In this document: positions 2,897 to 64,000 of the stretch, one piece after another | Position numbering within the stretch: the stretch's first letter is position 1 | How the letters are laid out: the number at the start of each line of letters is the position of its first letter | Origin: Candidatus Woesearchaeota archaeon CG10_big_fil_rev_8_21_14_0_10_45_16 | GTDB taxonomy: Archaea; Nanobdellota; Nanobdellia; Woesearchaeales; GW2011-AR9 | Reading direction: 5' to 3' | Length of the DNA: 64,000 nt | Assembly: GCA_002762785.1 (NCBI GenBank) | Contig: PCXY01000005.1 | Span: 188,796-252,795 of the forward strand | The notes under the pieces: model-generated | Databases searched by the model: none | Told to the model about the DNA's origin: nothing | The model's input: the letters and a program-made list of their open reading frames with translations, nothing else | Translations under genes and position numbers: made by a program

Positions 2897-3570
2897 AGAT
2901 CGCTATTTCCCAAAGACAGGACCAGAACAGACACGGAGATTGGGTAGACAGCCTAGAACAAACATATGGAGTGTATTTTCAGCAGTTTGGAATTTCACTG
3001 ATACCGATACCAAATACGACTATCGACGTTGCGTCACTTTTGGATTCTTTAGAAATTGAAGGGATAATCCTTTCCGGCGGGAATGATATCAATCCTGAAA
3101 GTTATGGAGCAGCTAGGAAGGAAGGAATATCTTTAGCCTTAGGACGGGACGAGGTCGAAAGAGAGATGCTCAAGTATGCTCTCGACAAAAATCTCCCTGT
3201 TCTGGGAATCTGTAGAGGGATGCAGTTCATTAATGTTTATTTTAAAGGAAAATTGGTGGATTTTAAAGCGACCGGTTATGAACATCTCCCAAGAATGGAT
3301 CATACAGTGATGATAAAAGAATTCACCGAGTTGAGTGGTTCTAGAGTAAATTCTTTCCATAATTATGGTATCAGAATAAATGATCTGGGGAATGGTTTGA
3401 AGCCATTTGCAATTACAGAAGATGAAAAAACAGTTGAGGGGTTCTACCATTCCTCACGACCGATAGCAGGGATCGTCTGGCATCCTGAACGGCAAAGTCC
3501 TGATCCTGTTTTCAATGAGAAGATCATGAAAGCTTTTGTTTCAGGAGAATTATTCTGGAAGAAAAAGTAA
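2893..3570 (+). CDS. Class I glutamine amidotransferase-like protein of the peptidase C26 / gamma-glutamyl hydrolase family
   Basis: The Cys nucleophile motif 'GICRGMQ' is present, with 'VWHPE' near the C-terminus. The ATG at 2893 overlaps the upstream stop as ATGA; the track start at 2857 is a TTG. Confidence 0.65.
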   Translation: MKIAISQRQDQNRHGDWVDSLEQTYGVYFQQFGISLIPIPNTTIDVASLLDSLEIEGIILSGGNDINPESYGAARKEGISLALGRDEVEREMLKYALDKNLPVLGICRGMQFINVYFKGKLVDFKATGYEHLPRMDHTVMIKEFTELSGSRVNSFHNYGIRINDLGNGLKPFAITEDEKTVEGFYHSSRPIAGIVWHPERQSPDPVFNEKIMKAFVSGELFWKKK

Positions 3571-18636: not shown

Positions 18637-18841
18637 ATAAATCATAAAGAAAAGGTGGACAGCTTACCTGGTTTCCCACGGAATGCAGTACACCCAAGTA
18701 CGGAAGCGGTCTTAATTTCTGTGTTCGAAATGGGAACAGATGAACCCCGCCCCTATGGCCGTCCAATAGGCTCGAGAAAGCCTCCCTTTATAAAGATTTT
18801 GATTATTTTTCCACAACGATTTAAAAAGGCAGTAGAATCAG

Positions 18842-24832: not shown

Positions 24833-24895
24833 CCAGGCGGCTTTGAAGGCCTGCCGAGGAGAATTGAACTCCTGTCTCTTGAGTCACAGTCAAGA
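24833..24895. other. Three consecutive perfect stem-loops in the hisS upstream region, with unknown function
   Basis: The hairpins are 'caggc...gcctg', 'aggag aattgaa ctcct' and 'tcttga gtcacag tcaaga', with stems of 5, 5 and 6 bp. Confidence 0.3.
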
Positions 24896-25072
24896 ATCTT
24901 ACCATTAGAAGACGGCAAGCATAAGAAACGATGTGTGGGCTTTCGCCTAACGATGATGCAGAGAACTATCTATACTTTTCAAGACAGAGCAATAACTAGA
25001 AAAATCACCGACAATGAATACAATCAACTCGTGTCATAAGTATCTAAAAATAGTATTTCATTAAAAATGTTT

Positions 25073-25756: not shown

Positions 25757-25810
25757 AAAGGAAAGAAAACCAGTATTTAAAACATTCGTTTACAGGATAG
25801 AGATAAAGAG

Positions 25811-25898
25811 GGCAGCTGGGGGGAATCGAACCCCCTCCACAGGTTTGCTGCAACCTAACTCCACAGACCCGTATACTAGCCGTTATACTACAGCCGCC
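25811..25898 (-). tRNA. tRNA-His (anticodon GUG) with a genomically encoded G-1 and a 15-nt intron after position 37
   Basis: The T-arm 'GGGGG TTCGATT CCCCC' is intact and the acceptor stem GCGGCTG pairs with CAGCTGC. G-1 opposes the C73 discriminator, which is the His identity element. The anticodon loop reads 'CTGTGGA', and the 3' half 'ACCTG' pairs with 'CGGGT' after removal of 'AGTTAGGTTGCAGCA' (about 25846-25860). CCA is not encoded. Confidence 0.65.
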
Positions 25899-51472: not shown

Positions 51473-52267
51473 ATGATCGTTAAAGACGAATTATTAGGTA
51501 CACTTCGGCGCCATTTTGATCTTAATCTTTACGAAGTGAAATTGTGGACAGCACTGCTGAGCCGCGGCGTTTCCACCGCTGGTGAATTATCTGACATCGC
51601 TGATGTTCCAAGAAGCAGAAGTTATGATGTTCTTGAATCATTGGAGAAAAAAGGTTTTGTAGTCATGAAGTTAGGAAAACCTATCAAGTATATCGCAATC
51701 CCGCCGGGAGAAGTTGTCGATAGAGTGAGAAAAAACATGAACGTGGAAGCGCAGGAAAAAGTAAAGCGCTTAGAGAGTGTCAAAGGCTCCACATTGATGG
51801 AAGAACTGGAAACCCTTCATACCCAAGGTATCGCTTTGATCGATCCAGCAGAGATGAGCGGCTGCCTGCGCGGCAGGAACAACCTCTATAACCATCTTGA
51901 TCTTCTTATCAAAGATGCCAAGAAGAGTGTTAACATCATGACTTCTGACACCGGTTTCATGCGAAAAGCAGAGGGTCTGCGCCCTAGTTTAGAGAAAGCA
52001 AAGAAGCGCGGCGTCGCGGTCAAGATCATGGCTCCGATCACCAAAGAAAACAAAATGGTGGCTGACAGTCTTAAAGCGATAGCCCAGATCAAGCATACTG
52101 ACAAAATAAAATCGCGGTTTGTCACTGTCGACAGTAAAGACATGGTCTTCATGACTCTAGACGACAAGCAAGTACATCCCTCCTATGATCTGGGAGTATG
52201 GGTAAAGACGCCTTACTTCACGACGGCGATGGACCAGATGTTCAACAGCTTGTGGATGCAGAAGTAA
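51473..52267 (+). CDS. TrmB-family transcriptional regulator
   Basis: An N-terminal wHTH 'ELSDIADVPRSRSYDVLESLEKKGFV' is present. A GGAGG RBS lies 7 nt upstream of the ATG, whereas the track start is a GTG. Confidence 0.65.
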   Translation: MIVKDELLGTLRRHFDLNLYEVKLWTALLSRGVSTAGELSDIADVPRSRSYDVLESLEKKGFVVMKLGKPIKYIAIPPGEVVDRVRKNMNVEAQEKVKRLESVKGSTLMEELETLHTQGIALIDPAEMSGCLRGRNNLYNHLDLLIKDAKKSVNIMTSDTGFMRKAEGLRPSLEKAKKRGVAVKIMAPITKENKMVADSLKAIAQIKHTDKIKSRFVTVDSKDMVFMTLDDKQVHPSYDLGVWVKTPYFTTAMDQMFNSLWMQK

Positions 52268-52344
52268 TTTTTTATCTCTCTTTTTTTCTCTGTTTTAGTT
52301 TGATATGGGAAACTTTTATAATCATCGATGGGATTGATAGATTG

Positions 52345-52746
52345 ATGGAAAATAAAGACCTGAATAAAGTGATAAAGTCAAGCCCAGTAGTAATCCATAA
52401 GGGAAGATACGCTTATCTTAAGAGTAAAGAGAAAGGCTTGAATGACCATTTTCTGATAAGTCAGGATAAAGATGAGATAACGATCGTGACAGAAGAGGGA
52501 AATCTTCATTCTTTAAGATATGAAGAGGAAGTGAAATGGTTCAAACTATTTGAATTTAAAGTGTCGATGCCGTTCCTTGCTCCTGGATTCCTGGCTAAGA
52601 TTACGGAAACAGTCGCTGACAAAGGATTGAATATCTTGATCGTGTCTACATTTTCTAAAGATTACGCTTTGATCAAAGAAGAAAACTTTAAGACGGCGAT
52701 GGAAGCTCTTGAAACTGTCGGTTTTAAGATTGAAGTTGAAAAATGA
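52345..52746 (+). CDS. Small conserved hypothetical protein with a possible ACT-like regulatory domain
   Basis: The 133-aa protein starts at the 'MENKD' ATG. The track's 5' extension overlaps trmB and is unlikely to be real. Confidence 0.4.
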   Translation: MENKDLNKVIKSSPVVIHKGRYAYLKSKEKGLNDHFLISQDKDEITIVTEEGNLHSLRYEEEVKWFKLFEFKVSMPFLAPGFLAKITETVADKGLNILIVSTFSKDYALIKEENFKTAMEALETVGFKIEVEK

Positions 52747-52763
52747 TCTTATTTCGTCTTCAA

Positions 52764-54986
52764 CTATTTCACTTTCAACTTATTCTTAAATTCTTCTAAA
52801 GAAGCATAACCCTTCTGTTTCATGATCTCTTGCAGTTCTTTGACGATCCTCTCAAATGCCGGCGTGTCTTCCTGCATGAACACCGTCCCGAGCTGCACCG
52901 CATCCGCCCCTGCCAAAATATACTCAAAGACATCTTTGCCGGAAGTGATGCCGCCGACACCGATAACCTGGATCTCTGGTCTCAACAATTCTCTAAACTT
53001 GCGGACGTTGGAAAGGCCGAACGGCTTTATGGAAGTTCCGCCGACACCGCCGAAGCCGCCTTTGGGCTTGATGACCGCTTCTTCCGTCTCTGGATCGATA
53101 ACCAGACCGTTTCCGAGACTGTTGACACAGGTGACGAAACTGACGCTGCTTTGGTTAAGGATGTCAGCCATCTCCTGGAAATGAGCAAAGTCAAAATACG
53201 GCGGCAGCTTGACACCAAATGGTTTGGTACAGACTTCGGAAACTTGTTTAAGAACTTCTTTTGACTGTTCAAAGTCGTAGCCAACCTGCGGTTTGCCGAT
53301 GACGTTGGGACAAGAAAGGTTAAGTTCGATGAGATCGATCTCTTCCACGGCAGACAGTTCTTTCAGCATCACCAGGTTATCAGCAAGAGAAAGGCCGGAG
53401 ACGCTGACGATGCAAGGTTTTCCATGCTGCTTCAATCCAGGGATGGTCTCGGCATATCTCTGGTAGCCAAGGTTGCACAAGCCGTTGGAGTTGATTGAGT
53501 TTTGAGAAAAATCATGATACCGTGGTTCAGGATTACCATCCCTCGGTTCCAGAGTGCAGGACTTGGTCATGATCGCCGATGAGACTGAGGCTCCCAAGAG
53601 TTCTAATTCTTCCTCCGTCGTGCATCTGGGACCAGCCGCATTGAAGATAGGATGCTGGAAAGGGACGCCTCCTATCATGGTAGAAAGATCAAGGTTCTGC
53701 GCGAAATGTACTTCTTGTCCTTTGGCCTCTTCATAGATCCGGCCTCTTTCAAAAGCTACTTGTCCGTTGACGATAGTCATCACCGGCCAGCCTTTGATGG
53801 TCATGCCATGAAATGGCGTCCAGCCGCACTTAGAGAACTGCGCCTCGTCAGAGATTATGCCTTCCCGTTCCAGGTCGATGACGCAGATATCAGCGTGATA
53901 GCCTTCTTTCAGTTCGCCGCGGTTTTCGATGTAGAATATCCTGGCGGGATTGGTCGAAGTCAGTCTTATGACATCAAGAAGCGTCAGCTTATTCTCATGG
54001 ACAGCATTCAGAAGGAGAGGCAGCATCGTCTGCACGCCAGGGACACCGCACGGCGCCTGCTGGAATTCACGGTTCTTTTCCTCTTTGGTATGTGGAGCGT
54101 GATCAGTCGCTATCATGTCCACGACACCGTCACGGATACCAGTCCAGAGGGCTTCCTGATCTTCCACATAGCGAAGAGGGGGATTCATCTTGCCCAAATT
54201 TTTTTTCTGAATGAAGAAAGCCTCAGTTAAGAACAGATGATGCGGACAGACTTCGCAAGTCACTTTAGTTGTCTTGTTCTTCTGCAGGAATTCCATCTCT
54301 GCTTTGGTGCTGCAATGAGCGATATGGAGCGGTCTGTCAAGATACGAGGAGATGGTTATCGCTTCGGCCAGGCTAGTTACTGCGCAGAGAGCGTCCCGCA
54401 TCTTGTGGTGAAGCTGTGAGTTTCCATGAAGATGATTGAAGTGACGGATGAGCTGTTCGTTCTCAGCGTGGACGACCACAGGTCTTCTGGAATTTTGTAG
54501 AATTTCCGCAAAGACGCCAAGATCATCAGTCAGATAGTTTCCGGTGCTGCTGCCCAGATATACTTTGATACCGGCGATATTCTTCTGGCGGAGATTATCT
54601 TTGTTTTCGACACAGCCCAGCAGATAAAAACCGTAATTGACAATGCTCTTCATGGCCAGCTCTCTTTTTTCTTTAAGCTGTTCTTCGAAGACTGTGGGAG
54701 GGTTATTGTTAGGCATGTCCAGGATAGTCGTGACGCCGCCGGCAGCAGCCGCTTTCGAACCGGAAAGGAAATCTTCTTTATGGGTCGCACCCGGCTCACG
54801 GAAATGGACATGCGCGTCGATGAGGCCAGGGATGACATGCTTGCCGGCACAGTCGACGACAGTCTCATATTGCTCTGGAAGAAGATTAGGCTTGATCTCA
54901 GCGATAAGACCGTCTTTGATGCGAAGGTCGGCGGCGATGAAACCACCTTTCTCTACAGAATGGACCTTGCCGTTTTTAAGAAGCAT
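52764..54986 (-). CDS. Fusion protein with an N-terminal dihydroorotase and a C-terminal class 1A dihydroorotate dehydrogenase
   Basis: The N-terminal 'IDAHVHFREPG' is the cyclic amidohydrolase motif. The C-terminal half aligns along its length with L. lactis PyrDa-type DHODH, including 'NLSCPN' with the catalytic Cys and 'GGFGGVGG'. The frame is continuous for 740 aa. Confidence 0.75.
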   Translation of the reverse strand: MLLKNGKVHSVEKGGFIAADLRIKDGLIAEIKPNLLPEQYETVVDCAGKHVIPGLIDAHVHFREPGATHKEDFLSGSKAAAAGGVTTILDMPNNNPPTVFEEQLKEKRELAMKSIVNYGFYLLGCVENKDNLRQKNIAGIKVYLGSSTGNYLTDDLGVFAEILQNSRRPVVVHAENEQLIRHFNHLHGNSQLHHKMRDALCAVTSLAEAITISSYLDRPLHIAHCSTKAEMEFLQKNKTTKVTCEVCPHHLFLTEAFFIQKKNLGKMNPPLRYVEDQEALWTGIRDGVVDMIATDHAPHTKEEKNREFQQAPCGVPGVQTMLPLLLNAVHENKLTLLDVIRLTSTNPARIFYIENRGELKEGYHADICVIDLEREGIISDEAQFSKCGWTPFHGMTIKGWPVMTIVNGQVAFERGRIYEEAKGQEVHFAQNLDLSTMIGGVPFQHPIFNAAGPRCTTEEELELLGASVSSAIMTKSCTLEPRDGNPEPRYHDFSQNSINSNGLCNLGYQRYAETIPGLKQHGKPCIVSVSGLSLADNLVMLKELSAVEEIDLIELNLSCPNVIGKPQVGYDFEQSKEVLKQVSEVCTKPFGVKLPPYFDFAHFQEMADILNQSSVSFVTCVNSLGNGLVIDPETEEAVIKPKGGFGGVGGTSIKPFGLSNVRKFRELLRPEIQVIGVGGITSGKDVFEYILAGADAVQLGTVFMQEDTPAFERIVKELQEIMKQKGYASLEEFKNKLKVK

Positions 54987-55068
54987 GATTGTTTTCTATG
55001 ACGATCGTATAAAAAGATTTGGATGGTGGAAGAGATAGGCTCTTTAGTTATTGTCCACTTCCCATAAA

Positions 55069-55080
55069 TTTATATAAAAA
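55069..55080 (+). promoter_or_regulatory. TATA box for pyrE
   Basis: 'tttatataaaaa' is centred about 25 nt upstream of the ATG at 55099. Confidence 0.4.
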
Positions 55081-55098
55081 ATGTTTCTACTCAAAACC

Positions 55099-55740
55099 AT
55101 GGATTACAAAGAGGCGATAGCATTGGAGCTGTTGAGCATAAAAGCTGTTTCTTTGCGCACCAATCCGCCGTATACCTGGACTTCAGGTATCAAGGCGCCG
55201 ATCTATACTGACAATAGATTGATAATCTCTTTCCCTGATGTGCGGGAGAAAGTCATCGATGGTTTCAAAAGGATGATAAAAGATAATGATCTAGAGTTTG
55301 ATGTGATCGCCGGCACGGCTACGGCAGCGGTGCCGTTCGCCAGTTTTCTAGCCTGGGAATTGAAGAAGCCGCTGGTGTACATCCGCCATAAAGCCAAAGA
55401 GTATGGCGCCAGCAAACAGATCGAAGGGACGATGCCGGAAGGGGCGAGGGTACTTATTGTAGAAGACCTGATCTCCACCGGAGGCAGTGCCATCAGGTCG
55501 GTGGAAGCCTGCCGTAACGAGTATAAAGCAGATGTGGTCGGCGTGATAGCCGTGTTCAACTATCAGATGCATGAAGCTGTGAGCAATTTCTCAAAAGCTG
55601 AATGTTCTCTTCATACTTTAAGCAACTTTTCAACATTGGTGGAAGTCGCTGCCGAGCAGAACTATTTACGGACTGAAGATAAAGAGAAGGTCCTGCAATG
55701 GGCGGCTGATCCGGAAGGCTGGTATAATGCAACCTACTGA
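55099..55740 (+). CDS. pyrE: Orotate phosphoribosyltransferase
   Basis: The PRPP-binding motif 'VLIVEDLISTGGS' is present. The start was moved to the second ATG because the first abuts the TATA box. Confidence 0.8.
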   Translation: MDYKEAIALELLSIKAVSLRTNPPYTWTSGIKAPIYTDNRLIISFPDVREKVIDGFKRMIKDNDLEFDVIAGTATAAVPFASFLAWELKKPLVYIRHKAKEYGASKQIEGTMPEGARVLIVEDLISTGGSAIRSVEACRNEYKADVVGVIAVFNYQMHEAVSNFSKAECSLHTLSNFSTLVEVAAEQNYLRTEDKEKVLQWAADPEGWYNATY

Positions 55741-55747
55741 AAAAGAG

Positions 55748-56473
55748 ATGGAAGCGAGGAAGAGGCTGTGCTTGCCTTTAGATAATCTAGATTCATTAGA
55801 TACTGTAAAAGAGAGAGTTGAAGAATTATCCCCTTATGTAGGTTTATTTAAAGTTGGGAAAGGGTCGTATACGCGATTCGGACCATCAGTCGTAGATTTA
55901 GTGCACGAATCTGGAAGCAGCGTCTTTCTTGATCTTAAATATCACGATATTCCTGCCACCGTCAGAGATGCCTGCAAAGCAGCAGCTTCATTAGGTGTCT
56001 ATATGCTTAATGTCCATGCTTCCGGCGGTATGGAGATGATGAAAGCGGCCATGGCGGGAGCTGTAGAAGGGACGCTTCCCGGCTATCAGCGACCGAAGGT
56101 CATCGCCGTCACGGTATTGACAAGTATTGATGAAGAAACTCTTAATGGAGAATTGAATGTTCCCGGAAAACTAGAAGAGCACGTGTTACGTCTAGCCACT
56201 TTAGCACAGAAAGCTGGATTGGACGGCATCGTCTGTTCCGCTAATGATCTTGGTTACATCAAGCCGCATCTTCCAGAAGATTTTATGTACGTGACACCTG
56301 GTATCAAAGGAGTTACGAGTGAGGCTGGTTCAGATCAGGCCCGGGTGAGTTCTCCTAGTGGTGCTATGGCAGCTGGTTCTTCTATATTAGTTGTTGGGAG
56401 AGCAATTACTGGTGCTCCCGATCGAAAGGAAGCTGCGTATGAAATATTGCAGGATATGGCGAAGGGTTTATGA
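55748..56473 (+). CDS. pyrF: Orotidine-5'-phosphate decarboxylase
   Basis: 'LDLKYHDIPATV' and 'VVGRAI' are present. The ATG lies just after the pyrE stop. Confidence 0.8.
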   Translation: MEARKRLCLPLDNLDSLDTVKERVEELSPYVGLFKVGKGSYTRFGPSVVDLVHESGSSVFLDLKYHDIPATVRDACKAAASLGVYMLNVHASGGMEMMKAAMAGAVEGTLPGYQRPKVIAVTVLTSIDEETLNGELNVPGKLEEHVLRLATLAQKAGLDGIVCSANDLGYIKPHLPEDFMYVTPGIKGVTSEAGSDQARVSSPSGAMAAGSSILVVGRAITGAPDRKEAAYEILQDMAKGL

Positions 56474-57688
56474 TAACCTGCCGTAAGATTTCCGCAGTTC
56501 TGCTTCAAGTTTAGGCCAGTCCTGTGGAGAAGTTATGTTTCTGTTCGCAGTCAGGATAGCCTGAAATTGTTCTTCGTTGATTTCCGATGGAGCCGGTGGA
56601 ACGTCTGAAATTTTCGGCGCCGCGCTCAGCGCCTCTCCCTGCCGTACCCCACGAAGGCGGTCATGACTGTAGACGTCGTAACCACCGGCGGAGAAGCTGG
56701 AACTGTCGAAATTACCCAGCAAAGACGCCCGCCAGAGACTCTGGCCGCGCTGCGTGTTCTCTCGTACGTAATCAGGATGAAGAACGAGGATTCTAGTCTC
56801 TTTAATGTTGCTGTCACGCAGCAGTTGAAGGTACTCAGGGGTAAAGCCTAACCGATCTATGGCTCTGTGTTCATCCTCGTTTGCTTCCTGAAAGCCATCG
56901 GCAGTTGCAATGTATCCATCAGCTGTCCGGATCACCAGAGAACGGTATTCCGCTCCATCGCCGGATAAGCGAAGATTTTTCAGAGGGATGACGACGGAAC
57001 TGGCAGCGTTCCTGGCAGCTTCGGCTTCTTCAACAGCCGGCCGGAAATTGTGAGTCTGGATCAATTGGCCAAATGAATTGTTCTCGGGACCATACAGATG
57101 TCGCAGGACAAGGTTCTCTGGCTGTCTGGTGATGATCCATTCAACATTATCATTTTCTCTTCTCAAATAACCATGGCCGTCAGCAGTGTAGAACATACTG
57201 CCTCGGGATCCCTTATCCACCAATCGATGTTGGGTCAATTCATCGACATGGCAAAATGTGCCTGGTCCCAGTTTATTATAATCTAAGAGAGTGCCGGTGA
57301 TGTCTTCCAGGACGGTGAAGGGATGATCTATTCCAACTTGCGCCATCATTTCACCGAGATCAGTAACAAGAGAATGGAATCTTTCCCGTTTCTTAGGATT
57401 CCTCAACAGAACCTCAGCAGGAAGACCCATCCGCTGTCGGAGGATAGTAGCGCCGTATTTCTTTCTCAGTACCTTGGCGAGATCCCGTTGGCATCGGGCG
57501 CTGGCTTCATACAATGAGCCATCGTCGGAACCAGGATGCATGAAACGAGATTGAAAAACTATCGCTTCACCGAAAAGGCCATAGATACCGCCGGCTGCCT
57601 GCATCCCATCAGCGGCGATTACATATTCTTCAACTGCGCCCCCGTCTATCCCACGATAATCCCTAGCTACCCGGTCTATAAGTTTCAT
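56468..57688 (-). CDS. Hypothetical protein of 406 aa that looks GC-rich and has no recognised family
   Basis: This long ORF has coding composition. It sits between pyrF and pheS with converging orientation. Confidence 0.5.
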   Translation of the reverse strand: MKLIDRVARDYRGIDGGAVEEYVIAADGMQAAGGIYGLFGEAIVFQSRFMHPGSDDGSLYEASARCQRDLAKVLRKKYGATILRQRMGLPAEVLLRNPKKRERFHSLVTDLGEMMAQVGIDHPFTVLEDITGTLLDYNKLGPGTFCHVDELTQHRLVDKGSRGSMFYTADGHGYLRRENDNVEWIITRQPENLVLRHLYGPENNSFGQLIQTHNFRPAVEEAEAARNAASSVVIPLKNLRLSGDGAEYRSLVIRTADGYIATADGFQEANEDEHRAIDRLGFTPEYLQLLRDSNIKETRILVLHPDYVRENTQRGQSLWRASLLGNFDSSSFSAGGYDVYSHDRLRGVRQGEALSAAPKISDVPPAPSEINEEQFQAILTANRNITSPQDWPKLEAELRKSYGRLS

Positions 57689-57783
57689 CAGAACTATCGA
57701 AAATGACGGGTTTTTATAAACCTTGTGGAAGTTTAGTTACTGTTTAGTGACAATCATTTGGTGTCCAGGCAGGTGTAATTAAC

Positions 57784-57792
57784 TTTATAAAG
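57784..57792 (+). promoter_or_regulatory. TATA box for pheS (leaderless)
   Basis: 'tttataaag' is centred about 25 nt upstream of the ATG at 57814. Confidence 0.45.
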
Positions 57793-57813
57793 AACAGCCC
57801 TCTCAAACTGAGT

Positions 57814-59328
57814 ATGGACCTGCAGCCCTTGATCGCAAAATTGCACCCATTAGAAAGGCAAGTTCTTCCAGCTTTGAAGACAGAAACCGAACTTACGGCT
57901 ATCTGCAAGAAAGCCGGGATGCAGGAAGTGGAAGTCATCCGTTCTCTGCAATGGTTAGAGAACAAAGAAGTTCTCAAGATCAACAGTAAGAAGATACGGA
58001 TCATCTCACTAGACAAAGACGGAAAGACCTACAAGGAACACGGTCTGCCGGAAAAGATATTCCTTTCTACTTTAACGGAAGAGTTCAAAGGATTGAACAT
58101 CATCACCAAAAAATCCAAGCTCAGCCGAGCAGAAGTCAACGCCTGCATCGGCCTGCTGAAAAGAAAAGAAGCCATCGACATCCAGAAAGAGAAAGACGAG
58201 CTTTCCATAAAGATAAACGATAAAGGAAAAGAACTTCTTAAAGCTGCCTCACCTGAAGAAGATTTTCTTAAGCTTGATTTCCCCTTGGAAGAAAGTGAGA
58301 TCAAAGATCGCACCCTCATAAGAGACCTCAGCAAGAGAGGCATCCTCAAAATTGAAGAAAGAAAGATCATCACTGTCGGACTGACGCCATTAGGACATGA
58401 ACTGGTCGCCAAAGATATTGTCGGAGAGGTTGTCAACAGGCTTACTTCAAAGATGCTCAAAGACGGTTCCTGGAAGAAGAAAGAGTTCCGCTCATACGAC
58501 GTAGAGATCAACGTCCCTAAAGTCTATCCAGGAAAGAAACATTTCGTCAATGAAGCTGTCGAATACATCCGCAGCATCTGGCTGGAGATGGGTTTCAAAG
58601 AGATGACCGGCAACTATGTGCAGTCTGCTTTCTGGGATCTTGATGCGTTATTCGTACCGCAGGATCATCCCGCAAGGGAGATGCAGGATACGTTCTATCT
58701 AAAAGGGAAAGCAGAATTGCCTGAACTGTGGAAGAAAGTGAAAGCCGCCCATGAGAATGGTGGTGACACCGGCAGTAAAGGCTGGCAGTATACATTCTCA
58801 GAAGATGAAACTAAAAAAATATTGCTGCGGACGCACACCACCGTCTTGTCAGCGCAGACCATCTCCCACTTAAAGAAAGAGGATCTGCCGGCCAAGTTTT
58901 TCGCTGTCGGCAAAGTTTTTAGAAACGAAGCATTAGACTGGAAACATCTGTTTGAATTTTACCAGGTGGAAGGCATCGTCATTGACCCTGATGCCAACCT
59001 CAAACACCTCAAAGGCTATCTCACGCAATTTTATAAGAAGATGGGGTACAGCAAGGTCAGGATGCGGCCCGCCCATTTCCCCTACACGGAGCCATCTTTA
59101 GAAGTAGACGTCTTCCACCCAGTGAAGAAAGAATGGATCGAACTAGGCGGCGCGGGAATCTTCCGCCCGGAAGTGATCAAACCATTACTTGGCTTTGATT
59201 GTCCGGTCCTGGCCTGGGGACAAGGTATGGGAAGAATAATTTCAGAATACTGGAAGATCACCGATATCAGAGATCTCTACAAGAACGACCTGAAACAATT
59301 GAGAGAAGCGAAAACGTGGTTACGATAA
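57814..59328 (+). CDS. pheS: Phenylalanyl-tRNA synthetase alpha subunit (archaeal type)
   Basis: N-terminal wHTH repeats are followed by class II motifs 'FRNEALDWKHLFEFYQVEG' and 'GAGIFRPEV'. Confidence 0.85.
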   Translation: MDLQPLIAKLHPLERQVLPALKTETELTAICKKAGMQEVEVIRSLQWLENKEVLKINSKKIRIISLDKDGKTYKEHGLPEKIFLSTLTEEFKGLNIITKKSKLSRAEVNACIGLLKRKEAIDIQKEKDELSIKINDKGKELLKAASPEEDFLKLDFPLEESEIKDRTLIRDLSKRGILKIEERKIITVGLTPLGHELVAKDIVGEVVNRLTSKMLKDGSWKKKEFRSYDVEINVPKVYPGKKHFVNEAVEYIRSIWLEMGFKEMTGNYVQSAFWDLDALFVPQDHPAREMQDTFYLKGKAELPELWKKVKAAHENGGDTGSKGWQYTFSEDETKKILLRTHTTVLSAQTISHLKKEDLPAKFFAVGKVFRNEALDWKHLFEFYQVEGIVIDPDANLKHLKGYLTQFYKKMGYSKVRMRPAHFPYTEPSLEVDVFHPVKKEWIELGGAGIFRPEVIKPLLGFDCPVLAWGQGMGRIISEYWKITDIRDLYKNDLKQLREAKTWLR

Positions 59329-59329
59329 G

Positions 59330-60970
59330 ATGCCGACAATAACACTAAACAAGACCGTATTCGAGAAACTGGTGGGCAAAGAATTGCCGTTAGAACAGCT
59401 GAAAGACCGTATCAGCATGCTCGGGACGGATCTAGAGAAAATTGAAGGTAACGAGATCCACGTAGAGATCTTCCCTAACCGGCCTGATCTTCTTTCAGAG
59501 CAGGGCTTTGCCAGGGCTTTCAGCAGTTTCATCGGTGTCAAGACCGGATTACGGAAATATGAAGTAAAGAAGAGCGGGGAAAAGATCATCGTCGATCCTT
59601 CCGTCAGCATGCGCCCTTATACTGCCTGCGCTATCGTCAAGAACCTGACCTTCTCAGAAGAGAGGATCAAAGAGATCATGCAAGTTCAGGAAAAACTAGC
59701 CGTCACCTTTGGCCGGAACCGTAAGAAATCGGCGTATGGCATCTATCCAATCGATAAGATAACTTTCCCCGTAACCTATATCGCCAAAGATCCTTCTACC
59801 GTAACTTTCTGGCCGTTGGGTATGGAAGGAAATATGAACGCTTCAGAAGTACTGGAGAAACATCCTAAAGGTCAAACCTATAAGCATCTTACAGAAAGCT
59901 GGAAGAAATATCCGTTCTTCATCGACGCCAAACAGAAAGTCATGTGTATGCTGCCGTTCACCAATTCACATGATACAGGAAAAGTTGACGACGATACTAA
60001 AGATGTTTTCGTCGAATGCACCGGTAATGATCTGCAAAATGTCCAGCTGGCCCTTAACATTATCACAACGGTCTTGGCTGACATGGGCGGGCAGATCTAC
60101 AGCCTTGACATCGAGTACCCTGACAAGACCATCACCACTCCTGATCTTACGCCGAAGAAGATGGATCTTGATCTATCGTACATCAACAAGCTTCTGGGAT
60201 TGAAACTAGGTGAGAACAAAGTTAAAGATCTTCTGGAAAAGATGGGTTTCGGCTATGAGAAAGGCGAAGTGTTGATTCCAGCATACCGGGCTGATATCCT
60301 CCATCAGGCTGATCTTGTTGAAGATATCGCCATCGCCTACGGTTATGAGAACTTTGAAGAAGAGATACCGAACGTAGCAACGATCGGTGAAGAATCTCAG
60401 CTAGAGAAATTAAGCCGGAAGATCCGTGATATTCTCATCGGCCTGCGCCTGTTAGAAGTTAAGAACTACCATCTTACGACAAGGGAAGATCTCAATGAGA
60501 AATTGAACGTTGAGGAAGACGTCATCCCTTTGCAGAACGCTCTTGGAGAGCATAACCATCTGCGGAACAAGATATTATCAAGTCTCTTGAAGAATCTTGC
60601 CGATAACCAGCACCATGAATATCCACAGAACCTCTTTGAGATCGGCCGGGTGTTCACTTCCGGGAAATCAGAGACAGGAATCGTCGAAAAAGAACACCTA
60701 GCGGTAGTCTTATGTCATGAGAAAACTGATTTCACAGAAGTGAAACAAGTCTTGGATACGCTGATGCAGTCCTTCGGGATCGAATATGAAGTCAAGGAAA
60801 GTTCTCATCCCAGTTATATTAAAGGAAGGGTCGGCGAAATCATCCTCGATGGAAAGAAAGTCGGTGTGATCGGCGAACTTCATCCGACTGTGATAGAGAA
60901 GTGGGGGATGCTGATGCCTATCGTCTGTCTGGAGATGGATGTTGATTTACTTCTTAAAGTTACTCTTTAA
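59330..60970 (+). CDS. pheT: Phenylalanyl-tRNA synthetase beta subunit (archaeal type)
   Basis: The 546-aa protein has B3/B4 and B5 domains. Its start lies 2 nt after the pheS stop. Confidence 0.85.
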   Translation: MPTITLNKTVFEKLVGKELPLEQLKDRISMLGTDLEKIEGNEIHVEIFPNRPDLLSEQGFARAFSSFIGVKTGLRKYEVKKSGEKIIVDPSVSMRPYTACAIVKNLTFSEERIKEIMQVQEKLAVTFGRNRKKSAYGIYPIDKITFPVTYIAKDPSTVTFWPLGMEGNMNASEVLEKHPKGQTYKHLTESWKKYPFFIDAKQKVMCMLPFTNSHDTGKVDDDTKDVFVECTGNDLQNVQLALNIITTVLADMGGQIYSLDIEYPDKTITTPDLTPKKMDLDLSYINKLLGLKLGENKVKDLLEKMGFGYEKGEVLIPAYRADILHQADLVEDIAIAYGYENFEEEIPNVATIGEESQLEKLSRKIRDILIGLRLLEVKNYHLTTREDLNEKLNVEEDVIPLQNALGEHNHLRNKILSSLLKNLADNQHHEYPQNLFEIGRVFTSGKSETGIVEKEHLAVVLCHEKTDFTEVKQVLDTLMQSFGIEYEVKESSHPSYIKGRVGEIILDGKKVGVIGELHPTVIEKWGMLMPIVCLEMDVDLLLKVTL

Positions 60971-62297
60971 AATATAGGATCTCATCTAATCTGTCTTCAG
61001 CTTTTAACTTTGAATAGATGCGGCTGTTGGGCAGTCCCGCTTCACTCCAGATCTTGGAGATCGTTCTTCTTGGCTTCCCTAATCCTTTTGCTGCGGTTAC
61101 AGCATTACCTTCAAAATGTTTGTGGAAGACGACGATCCAGTCTCGTTCGTATTGAGTGTACCCGCGAAAGTCAGGGATGGCTTCATCCAGCTGGCCGTAT
61201 CGCAGCAGAGCACGATGAAGGGAAGGGTCGATCTTTTTTAGTTCCCTTCTAGTCAGTCCTTCCCAAGAACCATATACTTTTGTATAGAATGCCGAAGGGT
61301 TTTCAGCATAATCCCGGTTATGGCCTTCTTTAGCGACTTTAAATCCCTGATTCCGCCAGATCCCAGAAAGAAAAGAATCCGGCAAGTTTAAGCGGCGAGA
61401 TGCATCTAAGATGGTCTGAATGTCACCCACATCAATTCTGCCTATATCCGGCGCATTGGACTTCTTGCGGTGTTTCCTTGTTCTTGGTCTCAAATTATTA
61501 TTGTTCCAAAAGTTCCAAACTTTCCGCCACGGAAGAGACATAGCAGCAGCAGCAGTAGTCACGTCTCCTTGACAGAGATAATAAGAACCGATGATAGTCA
61601 TCCGTTCTTCATCTGTATGTCCAAATCTTTGCGGGATAGCTGTTGAAATGAGACCGGCATCGTATAAAGCATCATGCAGACCACGATCATGTTGCCGAAG
61701 CCGATATCGTGAATCAACTCCATTAGGATATTTCTCATGGAAGAAAGTCAAAGGATCAGGAGCATATTTGGTCGAAAACTGAATATCAAACCCACTTTCC
61801 AGGGGAGTGATAGAAACTATCTTCCGGGGAATGACTACTTTTCCATCATACGTAAGAGCCTCCATCAGCCGCCGGACATTATCTTCTGCTGTTGCATCAG
61901 CAGGTAAGCCACGTAGAGCGTCAATGATTGTCGGGGAAGCTCTGGAGATCAATCTTTCCACGAATTCCTGTAATTTTTTATCCGAGAAAGTGGGCAACGC
62001 ATCTGTAAGGTGAACTGATTCTTCTGGAGCACTAAGAGTATCTCCTAAAAACAGAGGTTTTCCGTCAGCAGAGCCTATAACCCTTTCAAGGGAAGTTCTT
62101 CTTTTGGGATTGATCTGCTCAAGAGCATAGAACTGGAGCAGTGCCCTCTCTTCGTCAATAGCAGCTAGAGCTAAAATCATCCGTTGATGATACGGAGTAA
62201 GATCAGACGCTTCCAGAAGATAATCTATCGCTCTCCTCTCTAGACCCTCTGTCTCTTTTACCAGCCGAGCAAGATTGAAATCAGTCATAATAATCAT
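60960..62297 (-). CDS. Protein with an internally duplicated HTH-like module, possibly derived from a mobile element
   Basis: The repeat segments are 'GDVTTAAAAMSLPWRKVWNFW' and 'GNAVTAAKGLGKPRRTISKIWSEAG'. The start was trimmed to 'MIIMTD' (62297) to avoid overlapping the L14e stop. Confidence 0.45.
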   Translation of the reverse strand: MIIMTDFNLARLVKETEGLERRAIDYLLEASDLTPYHQRMILALAAIDEERALLQFYALEQINPKRRTSLERVIGSADGKPLFLGDTLSAPEESVHLTDALPTFSDKKLQEFVERLISRASPTIIDALRGLPADATAEDNVRRLMEALTYDGKVVIPRKIVSITPLESGFDIQFSTKYAPDPLTFFHEKYPNGVDSRYRLRQHDRGLHDALYDAGLISTAIPQRFGHTDEERMTIIGSYYLCQGDVTTAAAAMSLPWRKVWNFWNNNNLRPRTRKHRKKSNAPDIGRIDVGDIQTILDASRRLNLPDSFLSGIWRNQGFKVAKEGHNRDYAENPSAFYTKVYGSWEGLTRRELKKIDPSLHRALLRYGQLDEAIPDFRGYTQYERDWIVVFHKHFEGNAVTAAKGLGKPRRTISKIWSEAGLPNSRIYSKLKAEDRLDEILYFKE

Positions 62298-62319
62298 CAA
62301 AAAAAGTAATAAAAAAAAA

Positions 62320-62739
62320 TTATTGAGCAGCTGCTTCGACTTTAACCGGTTCTTTCTCAACAGGAGCTTCTTTCTTAGCCGGTTCTTCAGCAGTCGATTT
62401 CTTTTCAGCTTTTGGAGCTTTCTTCTTAGCTTCTTTCACTGGCTTTGCTGCTTTCTTCTTCTGCTTCTTAGGTCTCTCAGCCGTTTTTCTTGGCTTGCTT
62501 TCTTTTACAGCGACACCGAGTTTGCTGAAAGCGGCTTTGACCTCAGCCGAAGATGCTTTCTCTTTGATATCAAGCGTCTGAGCCAGCGGTTCCAGGTGGC
62601 GGACATTAACTTTCTTCCTTCTGGTAGCCCCATCGACAACAACGAACCGTTCATCAACAGCTTCGACGACAACACATTTCTTCCCAGCATCTCTTCCTGC
62701 CAGCTTCACACAGACCTTTCCTACGTGATAGATACTCAT
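62320..62739 (-). CDS. rpl14e: Ribosomal protein L14e with a Lys/Ala-rich C-terminal extension
   Basis: The KOW-like 'GKVCVKLAGRDAGKKCVVV' is followed by a ~60-aa KKxAxK tail. Confidence 0.8.
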   Translation of the reverse strand: MSIYHVGKVCVKLAGRDAGKKCVVVEAVDERFVVVDGATRRKKVNVRHLEPLAQTLDIKEKASSAEVKAAFSKLGVAVKESKPRKTAERPKKQKKKAAKPVKEAKKKAPKAEKKSTAEEPAKKEAPVEKEPVKVEAAAQ

Positions 62740-63026
62740 TGTGACTCACCTCGGGCTTTTTGCTGTAAGAGTTTCCTGGTACAGGCTGAGCACAAGACTC
62801 CTCCGTACGGTCTCTCCGGTCTCCTGGCAGTCTTCGGCATCTTCCCTAAGATAGCCGGACGTTCTCTAGGAACGCCTAGAAGCGGTTTCTTACAAGTACC
62901 GCAGACAGCTTTGCTTGGCTTCCGCTCTCGTAGATGGACTTTCGTATCTCCACCAGGTGTCTTGACGAACACTTTTCGGAAACGTCCTGATTTTTCTCTT
63001 CCTTTTGGCATTGTTTTTTCCTCCAA
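62736..63026 (-). CDS. rpl34e: Ribosomal protein L34e
   Basis: Zn-ribbon Cys pairs 'CGTC...CSAC' occur in a basic 96-aa protein. The gene overlaps L14e as ATGA. Confidence 0.8.
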   Translation of the reverse strand: MEEKTMPKGREKSGRFRKVFVKTPGGDTKVHLRERKPSKAVCGTCKKPLLGVPRERPAILGKMPKTARRPERPYGGVLCSACTRKLLQQKARGESQ

Positions 63027-63131
63027 AGGAACCCGATAGAAGTAGAATGATTCTACGACCCGAGTTGCCTCAATTGGTCACCCATGTAGGGTATTCGTAA
63101 CTAATTATGAGGGTGATTTATAAAAGTTTGC

Positions 63132-63902
63132 TCAATAAACTTTCATCAGCTTCCTTAGGATCAGACTAAACACTAATGAAGCGATGACATAGATGCCCAG
63201 CCAGCCGGGCTGCCAGCCGAAGATGGAAGTCGTCCCCAACGGCTTTAACTTGTTATAGTTTATCTGGATATTGCTGATAGCAGAACCTTTTTCATATTGG
63301 GCAACTGGTTCTTCATAGCGAAGATCTTTAGTGATCAAAACATTCTTAGACTGCTGTTCTTCAGCAGCTTCAACAACTACAGTATGGCTGCCTTCCGTGC
63401 TTTTAAGACGCCAGGTGAGAGCGCCAGTTATCGATTGCGTGGCATCGCTGAGGAGTTCCGTCCCTTCATCTACCGCCAGCATAGCATCGCCGGTAACACC
63501 TTCAGAGAATGAAGCAGTGATGGTATAAACTTCTCCCGGATAGATCGGCTCATAGGCTAGAGAACCGGCCATCCAGCCGAAAATCAATAAAGCAGGCAGC
63601 ATGGTTGCCAGCATCACTTTCGGCTTGAAAGAAGCGTTCATCATGTAATCCTTGTTGACGCTCATGGCTTCCTTCTGGACCTTCATCATCTCTTCTGGAT
63701 TGGAACGTAATTCTTTCATCCGTCTCTGAAACTCTTTCTGCTTGCTCTTGATCTCTTTCAGCTTCGGCTGGTCGGTCATCTTCTTATAGACGAAGGTGGC
63801 GTAAAGAGCATAGGCTAAAGAGATGATAACGATAGCCAGAAAAGGGCTTAGGTCGATCAACGGACGCAGTACAGGCCCCAACACTGGTTCTAAAAATGCC
63901 AT
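63132..63902 (-). CDS. DUF106-family membrane protein (archaeal YidC/Oxa1/EMC3-like insertase) with a C-terminal extension
   Basis: 'LEPVLGPVL', a TM helix, the coiled 'KEIKSKQKEFQRRMKELR' and a second TM helix match the DUF106 layout. Confidence 0.6.
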   Translation of the reverse strand: MAFLEPVLGPVLRPLIDLSPFLAIVIISLAYALYATFVYKKMTDQPKLKEIKSKQKEFQRRMKELRSNPEEMMKVQKEAMSVNKDYMMNASFKPKVMLATMLPALLIFGWMAGSLAYEPIYPGEVYTITASFSEGVTGDAMLAVDEGTELLSDATQSITGALTWRLKSTEGSHTVVVEAAEEQQSKNVLITKDLRYEEPVAQYEKGSAISNIQINYNKLKPLGTTSIFGWQPGWLGIYVIASLVFSLILRKLMKVY

Positions 63903-64000
63903 GGTAAAGAGATTTTATCAATGGTTTAAAAAGGTTGTGCTCAAATGTCACGCCATTTGAAAGGCGGGCGTATTACTCACTAAAGATCGTAATACACTAA

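Follow-up and report, generated by a model that had tools for sequence, protein, structure and literature searches.

One gene of Candidatus Woesearchaeota archaeon CG10_big_fil_rev_8_21_14_0_10_45_16 encodes steps 3 and 4 of uridine monophosphate (UMP) synthesis on a single intact polypeptide. The gene lies on the minus strand of the 64,000-nucleotide stretch of contig PCXY01000005.1 analyzed here (the window, whose numbering is used throughout) and joins pyrC, for dihydroorotase (DHOase), in-frame to pyrD, for dihydroorotate dehydrogenase (DHODH). We read the 740-amino-acid (aa) product as a bifunctional DHOase and class 1A DHODH that was fused in place from an adjacent, overlapping gene pair and that would, by analogy, use fumarate as its electron acceptor; the probability that we attach to this reading is roughly 80%. 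The features on which it depends are as follows.

52764 to 54986, minus strand: fused pyrC-pyrD open reading frame (ORF), 740 aa, with an ATG start and a TAG stop at 52764-52766
53697 to 54986, minus strand: DHOase (PyrC) domain, long form, residues 1-430, TIM barrel plus adjacent beta-sandwich
54804 to 54812, minus strand: HxH metal-binding motif, His59 and His61, in 'IDAHVHFREPG', aligned with solved DHOases
54564 to 54566, minus strand: Lys141 ('GIKVYLGSSTGN'), position of the carbamylated bridging lysine, aligning with 'GLKLFLGSSTGN' of 2gwn
54468 to 54470, minus strand: metal-site His173, conserved relative to 2gwn and 3mpg
54315 to 54317, minus strand: metal-site His224, conserved relative to 2gwn and 3mpg
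54102 to 54104, minus strand: Asp295 ('ATDHAPH'), catalytic Asp and metal ligand, conserved relative to 2gwn and 3mpg
53691 to 53699, minus strand: fusion junction Gln430-Asn431-Leu432 (CAG AAC CTT), placed by comparison with the unfused loci L011 and L013
52767 to 53696, minus strand: class 1A DHODH (PyrD) domain, residues 431-740
53304 to 53321, minus strand: active-site loop 'NLSCPN' with Asn556, Cys559 and Asn561, placed by alignment to 1dor and invariant in the fusions

Steps 3 and 4 of UMP synthesis are encoded by one open reading frame

Both domains are read in a single frame, and many stop codons interrupt the two others near the junction. Pfam profiles placed Amidohydro_1 at residues 51-410 (E 8e-30) and DHO_dh at residues 434-722 (E 6.5e-74), and detected no CPSase, OTCace, PRTase or OMPdecase domain on the 740-aa protein. 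A first-pass annotation, made from the letters of the DNA, had described a dihydroorotase fused in-frame to a DHODH, and the single ORF together with full-length Pfam and NCBIfam matches to both families bears this out; the two motifs it had picked out are present as residues 56-66 ('IDAHVHFREPG') and 556-561 ('NLSCPN'). The protein is a 100% match to NCBI PIN73417.1, which was deposited under the name "dihydroorotate oxidase" only, and the dihydroorotase half is thus invisible in the name.

An in-frame junction of this kind could also stem from faulty sequencing or assembly, or from a rare variant, in an organism that has separate and overlapping pyrC and pyrD genes. Its relatives show exactly that arrangement, and the fusion is found in only one population. 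However, contig L001 (12,455 bp), which an independent assembler (Logan) built from run SRR6240789, is 100% identical in DNA sequence to window positions 51611-64000 without gaps, and the identical protein is encoded on three assembled contigs in public collections, which makes an assembler artefact behind the fusion very unlikely. Furthermore, the junction retains no remnant stop in the pyrC frame and no pyrD start, with Leu or Asn in place of the Met, and it contains no long homopolymer; a single insertion or deletion would not remove both signals. We therefore consider an error or variant at the junction to be highly improbable.

The N-terminal half is a predicted long-form dihydroorotase

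The PyrC half passed the NCBIfam model TIGR00857 (pyrC_multi) with 371.5 bits relative to a cut-off of 279.05, over residues 17-413, and matched the dihydroorotase model PRK07575 over residues 4-430 with 457 bits. Its best sequence matches among solved structures were the enzymes of P. gingivalis (2gwn, 278 bits) and B. anthracis (3mpg, 256 bits), and the DHOase domain of CAD was matched with 205-208 bits. The binuclear metal site of cyclic amidohydrolases is built from four His, one Asp and one carbamylatable Lys (PMC11818841). Alignment with 2gwn and 3mpg shows that the full set (H59, H61, K141, H173, H224 and D295) is kept, and these residues are invariant across all six fusion proteins that we compared. 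Specificity for carbamoyl-aspartate and dihydroorotate is predicted indirectly, from the score of the DHOase profile (457 bits) relative to those of the allantoinase and hydantoinase profiles (273 and 254 bits) and from the adjacent pyrE and pyrF.

The C-terminal half is a class 1A dihydroorotate dehydrogenase by profile and by active-site residues

The PyrD half passed PRK02506, the NCBIfam model of the class 1A 'dihydroorotate oxidase', with 427.4 bits relative to a cut-off of 301 over residues 433-739, whereas the 1B-type model PRK07259 gave 213 bits, which is under its cut-off of 269. The C-terminal half thus passes DHODH profile searches in NCBIfam as it does in Pfam. Comparison with solved structures pointed the same way: class 1A enzymes were matched with 338 bits (L. 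lactis DHODA) and 295-316 bits (the fumarate-dependent DHODH of T. cruzi and Leishmania), while class 1B enzymes reached 113-119 bits and class 2 enzymes about 55 bits. The PyrDa-like, class 1A assignment made in the first pass therefore stands. When aligned to 1dor, the protein keeps all catalytic and ligand residues of L. lactis DHODA, namely K43 (K475 in the fusion protein), N53, P56, R57, N67, N127, C130 (C559), N132, K136, K164, N193 and K213. Cys559 is the equivalent of the catalytic base Cys130 by this alignment, and is the Cys of class 1 rather than the Ser of class 2.

The closest homologues of the PyrD half are stand-alone class 1A enzymes of about 310 aa from Woesearchaeota, Diapherotrites, Aenigmarchaeota and Nanoarchaeota. 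This makes class 1A the normal type for these organisms, with the fusion as a derived condition. That no fusions appear among these homologues is not in itself evidence, since a comparable protein search missed P0001 itself. In characterized class 1A DHODH, the flavin mononucleotide (FMN) is re-oxidized by fumarate at the same site. By analogy with the L. lactis and T. cruzi enzymes, fumarate is most likely the electron acceptor of the PyrD half, without a PyrK partner, and this half would form a homodimer; the parent enzymes of both halves are dimers.

Both superfamilies are also represented in a different pathway, where homologous families again catalyze consecutive steps, and the protein could instead be a catabolic pair, in which a dihydropyrimidinase or hydantoinase is fused to a domain resembling dihydropyrimidine dehydrogenase (PreA). 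Hydantoinase and allantoinase profiles were indeed secondary matches, at 254-273 bits. However, the DHOase models scored far higher (457 and 371.5 bits), and TIGR02033 reached 254.5 bits, under its cut-off of 393. As for the C-terminal half, it exceeds the equivalog cut-off for class 1A, shares about 50% identity with L. lactis DHODA and keeps all of the orotate-binding residues, and the neighboring genes are pyrE and pyrF. The catabolic reading, which we regard as extremely improbable, was rejected on profile scores and gene context.

A predicted structure gave a confident fold for both halves. The AlphaFold2 model, built from a 57-sequence alignment, had a mean predicted local distance difference test (pLDDT) score of 92 and a predicted TM-score (pTM) of 0.76. 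The pLDDT was mostly above 90 in the DHOase domain and 87-90 over residues 421-440, so the junction is modeled with confidence. The sole weak segments (approximately 491-496, 560-570 and 641-645) are loops that carry DHODH active-site residues, including the Cys559 loop. Foldseek aligned the DHOase domain to 2gwn and to 7uof from M. jannaschii (target-normalized TM-scores of 0.88 and 0.90) and the DHODH domain to 1jrc (0.93, with 50% identity). It found no solved chain that covers both domains, the query-normalized TM-score never exceeding 0.55.

Comparison with unfused relatives suggests fusion in place

In two of the closest unfused Woesearchaeota loci, L011 and L013, pyrC is followed directly by pyrD. 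The L011 pyrC gene ends in '...KGREVEVN*' and is followed by 'MDISTSFAGIQLAHPIFNSAGP' (PyrD 'MDISTSFAG...'), with the TAA stop and the ATG start sharing 1 nt (AACTAATGG, TAATG). In L013, pyrC ends in '...KGEEVSFTEG*' and is followed by 'MKMDVTTRIGGINLENPIFNASGP' (PyrD 'MKMDVTTRIGG...'), and here the stop and start share 4 nt (ATGA). The window reads '...KGQEVHFAQNLDLSTMIGGVPFQHPIFNAAGP' at the equivalent place, where '...EVHFAQ(N)' at the end of PyrC meets '(N)LDLSTMIGG...' at the beginning of PyrD with no linker, stop or start codon. Because the window junction aligns with the ends and starts of the genes in L011 and L013, the linker is 0 residues long, and the linker of about 5 residues given in the first-pass annotation has to be dropped. 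A complete PyrC runs into a complete PyrD in which the initiator Met has been replaced.

Compared with the proteins of L011 and L013, identity is 63-64% for the PyrC half and 66% for the PyrD half; from these like values it follows that the two halves share one history with an adjacent gene pair. Most simply, adjacent pyrC and pyrD genes became fused where they stood when the overlap of stop and start was lost. Another Woesearchaeota genome (L012) is syntenic with the window (phenylalanyl-tRNA synthetase (PheRS) ... pyrF/E - pyrC - X - TrmB - Pelota), but there pyrC is unfused, pyrD is not adjacent and pyrE/F is one gene of 502 aa. Fusion states in the pyrimidine pathway evidently change quickly within this group, to judge from a locus that is syntenic and yet has an unfused pyrC and a single pyrE/F gene.

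PyrD might also, or only, be made as a separate protein through internal initiation at Met437, since an in-frame ATG (53676-53678) lies 6 codons into the PyrD part. The sequence upstream of Met437 ('CTTGATCTTTCTACCATG') contains no Shine-Dalgarno-like purine run, though, and a product that starts there would miss N-terminal residues that unfused homologues keep. The upstream frame stays open regardless, and separate production of PyrD is in our view very improbable.

Fusions of PyrC to PyrD are rare but have arisen at least four times

An exhaustive HMMER pass was made over 1.84 billion cluster representatives. Among its best 150 matches, all of at least 276 bits, three combined PyrC with PyrD (P0002, P0014 and P0132), and a search of 5.8 billion proteins added two more fusions (P0030 and P0040). 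The first pass had raised the occurrence of the fusion in other archaea; the exact form is a singleton, but other types of PyrC-PyrD fusion do exist in metagenomic data. These differ in composition. P0002 (L008 7590-10496) is a 968-aa PyrC-PyrD(1B)-PyrK protein, and P0014 consists of PyrC, a linker of about 60 aa, PyrD(1A) and PyrE. P0132 joins PyrC to a divergent DHO_dh-like domain. P0040 (L002 8001-11684; also in L003 and L004) is a 1227-aa PyrC-PyrD(1B)-PyrF-PyrE protein that places steps 3-6 on one chain. Its gene is preceded in the operon by two OTCace-family genes and pyrI, was recovered in three assemblies and has bacterial-type neighbors (DnaB, DnaX and UvrD). In P0030 (L009 8001-9968), a class 1A PyrD is joined to a DHOase core that covers profile positions 42-353 of 412 and has neither its N-terminal nor its C-terminal beta-sandwich segment, and it might be that the PyrD domain is a structural substitute for the missing adjacent domain of the DHOase. 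The P0030 gene is divergent from one for a 469-aa PyrE-PyrF fusion, and its neighbors are archaeal (diphthamide synthase).

The identities of these proteins to the window halves are discordant between PyrC and PyrD, at 63% and 27% for P0002, 29% and 62% for P0030, 42% and 45% for P0014, and 42% and 26% for P0040. From this discordance it follows that the PyrC-then-PyrD order has at least four independent origins.

Adjacent but separate genes are the more usual state. When the fusion alignment was used to scan species-representative genomes, not exhaustively, at least 600 stretches were listed, and nine loci among the matches listed matched both halves. All nine have separate ORFs, in the order pyrC then pyrD, pyrD then pyrC, or pyrD, an ORF of about 270 aa and pyrC, and they belong to Woesearchaeota, other uncultured archaea, Peregrinibacteria, Peribacteria and Gracilibacteria. 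This confirms that adjacency of pyrC and pyrD is common and their fusion rare. A protein search with a junction-spanning query (residues 340-520) returned no match covering both sides, but since P0001 itself was likewise missed, nothing can be concluded from this.

These comparisons bear on whether the fusion offers any advantage. It could be real and bifunctional and still be selectively neutral, an accident that followed the loss of stop and start in a compact genome and that brings neither channelling nor a kinetic gain. In its exact form the fusion is a singleton, close relatives keep pyrC and pyrD separate, and the ancestral overlap of stop and start means that a tiny change suffices to fuse the genes. 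The same lineages also contain many other fused combinations, among them PyrE-PyrF, PyrC-PyrE, NUDIX-PyrC and PurB-PurA-HAD proteins, which suggests a general tendency toward fusion. However, the PyrC-PyrD combination recurred independently at least four times with differing PyrD classes and linkers, and some of the fusions persist over several samples: P0014 and P0040 are each found on contigs from several samples, within pyr operons. This pattern fits a selective benefit but does not prove one. A neutral accident thus remains a substantial rival, although we hold it only tentatively.

Two further fusions were seen in the same material. The P0002 contig also carries a gene for a 1209-aa PurB-PurA-HAD protein (adenylosuccinate lyase, adenylosuccinate synthetase and HAD hydrolase; L008 2317-5946). 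P0265 and P0387 (UniRef A0A6C0EBQ2) are PyrE-PyrF-PyrD(1A) fusions of 751-758 aa; one cluster member is labelled 'viral metagenome', and this fusion may come from a giant virus.

Genes for the last two steps of the pathway are divergent from the fusion

54987 to 55080, no strand: divergent intergenic region between the fusion and pyrE, 94 bp
55081 to 55740, plus strand: pyrE (orotate phosphoribosyltransferase), TIGR00336 137 bits (cut-off 107), Pfam Pribosyltran
55727 to 56473, plus strand: pyrF (orotidine monophosphate (OMP) decarboxylase), PRK00230 246 bits (cut-off 193), Pfam OMPdecase E 1e-51

In the window, pyrE and pyrF are two separate genes that overlap by 14 nt. They had been described as lying immediately downstream of the fusion on the other strand, and the adjacency and the plus strand are correct, but they flank the fusion gene on its 5' side and are transcribed away from it. 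In related Woesearchaeota, a fused pyrE/pyrF of 469-502 aa is common (L011 10439-11902, L012 4418-5926 and L009 6477-7886), with the L012 gene matching OMPdecase only. On the minus strand, 22-29 nt upstream of the fusion ATG, a TATA-like 'TTTTTATA' within 55010-55018 is a putative promoter whose spacing would fit a leaderless archaeal transcript. On the other side, a TATA-like 'TTTATATAAAAA' at 55069-55080 directly precedes the first pyrE ATG (55081). A second in-frame pyrE ATG (55099) suits a leaderless start better, and pyrE may be 6 codons shorter than the listed ORF.

No pyrK had been noted near the fusion in the first pass, and a tblastn query taken from the PyrK domain at the C-terminus of P0002 agreed, with no match in the 64-kb window. 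The window also contains no second pyrC or pyrD and no pyrB, pyrI, carA or carB, save for a weak GATase-like match at 2977-3543.

An ORF with an ACT domain (PF13840; 52198-52746, plus strand) converges on the 3' end of the fusion, the stop codons being 17 bp apart. A functional link of this ORF to pyrimidine synthesis is doubtful because its position is not conserved in the syntenic L012, where a NUDIX gene occupies the equivalent place. Between pyrF and PheRS-alpha lies a 406-aa ORF (56468-57688, minus strand) with no Pfam or NCBIfam match, which was also called on the Logan contig. Elsewhere in the window are two tRNA-His(GTG) genes on the minus strand (24848-24919 and 25810-25897), about 0.9 kb apart, the second of which is unusually long at 88 nt, and a 5S rRNA gene (18654-18766).

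Proposed function and relation to known enzymes

The analysis establishes an unbroken ORF, two complete domains with intact catalytic residues, the class 1A identity, an origin from neighboring genes, and both the rarity and the recurrence of PyrC-PyrD fusions. Activity of both halves, the use of fumarate and any kinetic benefit are predictions from the sequence. In the mechanism that we propose, the DHOase domain would convert N-carbamoyl-L-aspartate to L-dihydroorotate at a binuclear site formed by His59, His61, Lys141 (carbamylated), His173, His224 and Asp295. Cys559 would then serve as the catalytic base when the class 1A FMN domain oxidizes dihydroorotate to orotate, and the electrons would pass to fumarate at the same DHODH site with no need for PyrK, by analogy with characterized class 1A enzymes. 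Orotate would continue to PyrE and then PyrF, encoded divergently next door. The gene itself probably formed when a small change in the overlapping stop and start of translationally coupled pyrC and pyrD erased both signals, leaving an in-frame fusion without a linker.

At neutral pH the DHOase equilibrium favors carbamoyl-aspartate, and because of this an attached, effectively irreversible oxidase could help to pull flux. Possible benefits are a fixed 1:1 stoichiometry and proximity that helps to draw the DHOase equilibrium forward. Direct channelling of dihydroorotate, as proposed in the first pass, is a plausible hypothesis. A bolder proposal is that the DHOase-DHODH fusion is a selected, convergent metabolon found in DPANN archaea with small genomes and in some bacteria whose replication genes are of bacterial type, with forms that range from the two-enzyme chain to PyrC-PyrD(1B)-PyrK and the four-enzyme PyrC-PyrD-PyrF-PyrE, and that the zero-length junction fixes the active sites for direct hand-over of dihydroorotate. 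We think this unlikely. If true, it would provide a prokaryotic counterpart of the multienzyme proteins CAD and UMPS that bridges step 4, which is absent from both.

The following points weigh against the bifunctional class 1A reading as a whole. The reads behind the Logan assembly are possibly the same as those of the metagenome-assembled genome, and the agreement between the two counts against an assembler artefact and not against a rare population variant. The exact fusion forms a one-member cluster at 90% identity, from a single Crystal Geyser population. On the DHOase side, the best equivalog models score under their strict cut-offs (PRK07575 with 457 relative to 529 and PRK09060 with 441 relative to 482), although both matches are full-length. 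Finally, the negative results for pyrK and for a second pyrC or pyrD cover only the 64-kb window.

Each half closely resembles enzymes that are already known. The C-terminal 310 residues align end to end with L. lactis DHODA and the trypanosomatid DHODH (1dor, 2e68 and 3w1a), and share with the L. lactis enzyme all FMN- and orotate-binding residues, the catalytic Cys and, in the prediction, the fold. However, those class 1A enzymes are stand-alone homodimers of about 311 aa, whereas the fusion has a 430-residue DHOase in place of the N-terminal Met. Class 1B DHODH, a PyrD-PyrK heterotetramer (1ep1), has the same DHO_dh fold and catalytic Cys, but the window PyrD scores 113-119 bits to 1B as opposed to 338 to 1A, and there is no PyrK in the window. 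The long-form DHOases 2gwn, 7uof and 3mpg belong to the same length class and have the TIM barrel, adjacent domain and His/Lys/Asp site in common with the PyrC half, but they are monofunctional. Some, such as the DHOase of Aquifex, must associate with aspartate transcarbamoylase (ATCase), whose gene pyrB is not present in the window.

As a chain of consecutive steps of UMP synthesis, the protein is comparable to CAD (carbamoyl phosphate synthetase, DHOase and ATCase) and to UMPS (orotate phosphoribosyltransferase and OMP decarboxylase). CAD covers steps 1-3 and UMPS steps 5-6, and neither contains the DHODH of step 4; the window protein, with steps 3 and 4, is a member of neither. The metagenomic fusions P0014, P0030, P0040 and P0132 share its PyrC-then-PyrD order and catalytic residues, although their origins are independent. 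The arrangement had not been recognized as a described one in the first pass, and this is consistent with the literature. A full-text search, with subscription-only papers outside its reach, returned no description of a DHOase-DHODH fusion, and 'pyrCD' was used only as shorthand for two genes. A 2025 review of DHOase, in which gene-fusion patterns are discussed, describes only CAD, URA2 and monofunctional enzymes (PMC11818841).

The fusion is composed of ordinary members of both families that were joined by a familiar evolutionary route, and it is the arrangement that is rare. The pyrimidine-pathway fusions named in the searchable literature (CAD, URA2 and UMPS) do not include a covalent union of DHOase and DHODH. 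Automatic annotation seems to hide such fusions; because the NCBI name covers only 'dihydroorotate oxidase', pyrC could mistakenly be counted as absent when the metabolism of this organism is reconstructed. If both halves are active, the protein would be a natural single-chain catalyst from carbamoyl-aspartate to orotate, in which one could cleanly examine whether fusion helps to pull the unfavorable DHOase equilibrium. With at least four independent origins, the PyrC-PyrD fusions suggest that pathway genes have repeatedly become fused in the sampled lineages, a broader pattern that we did not find described.

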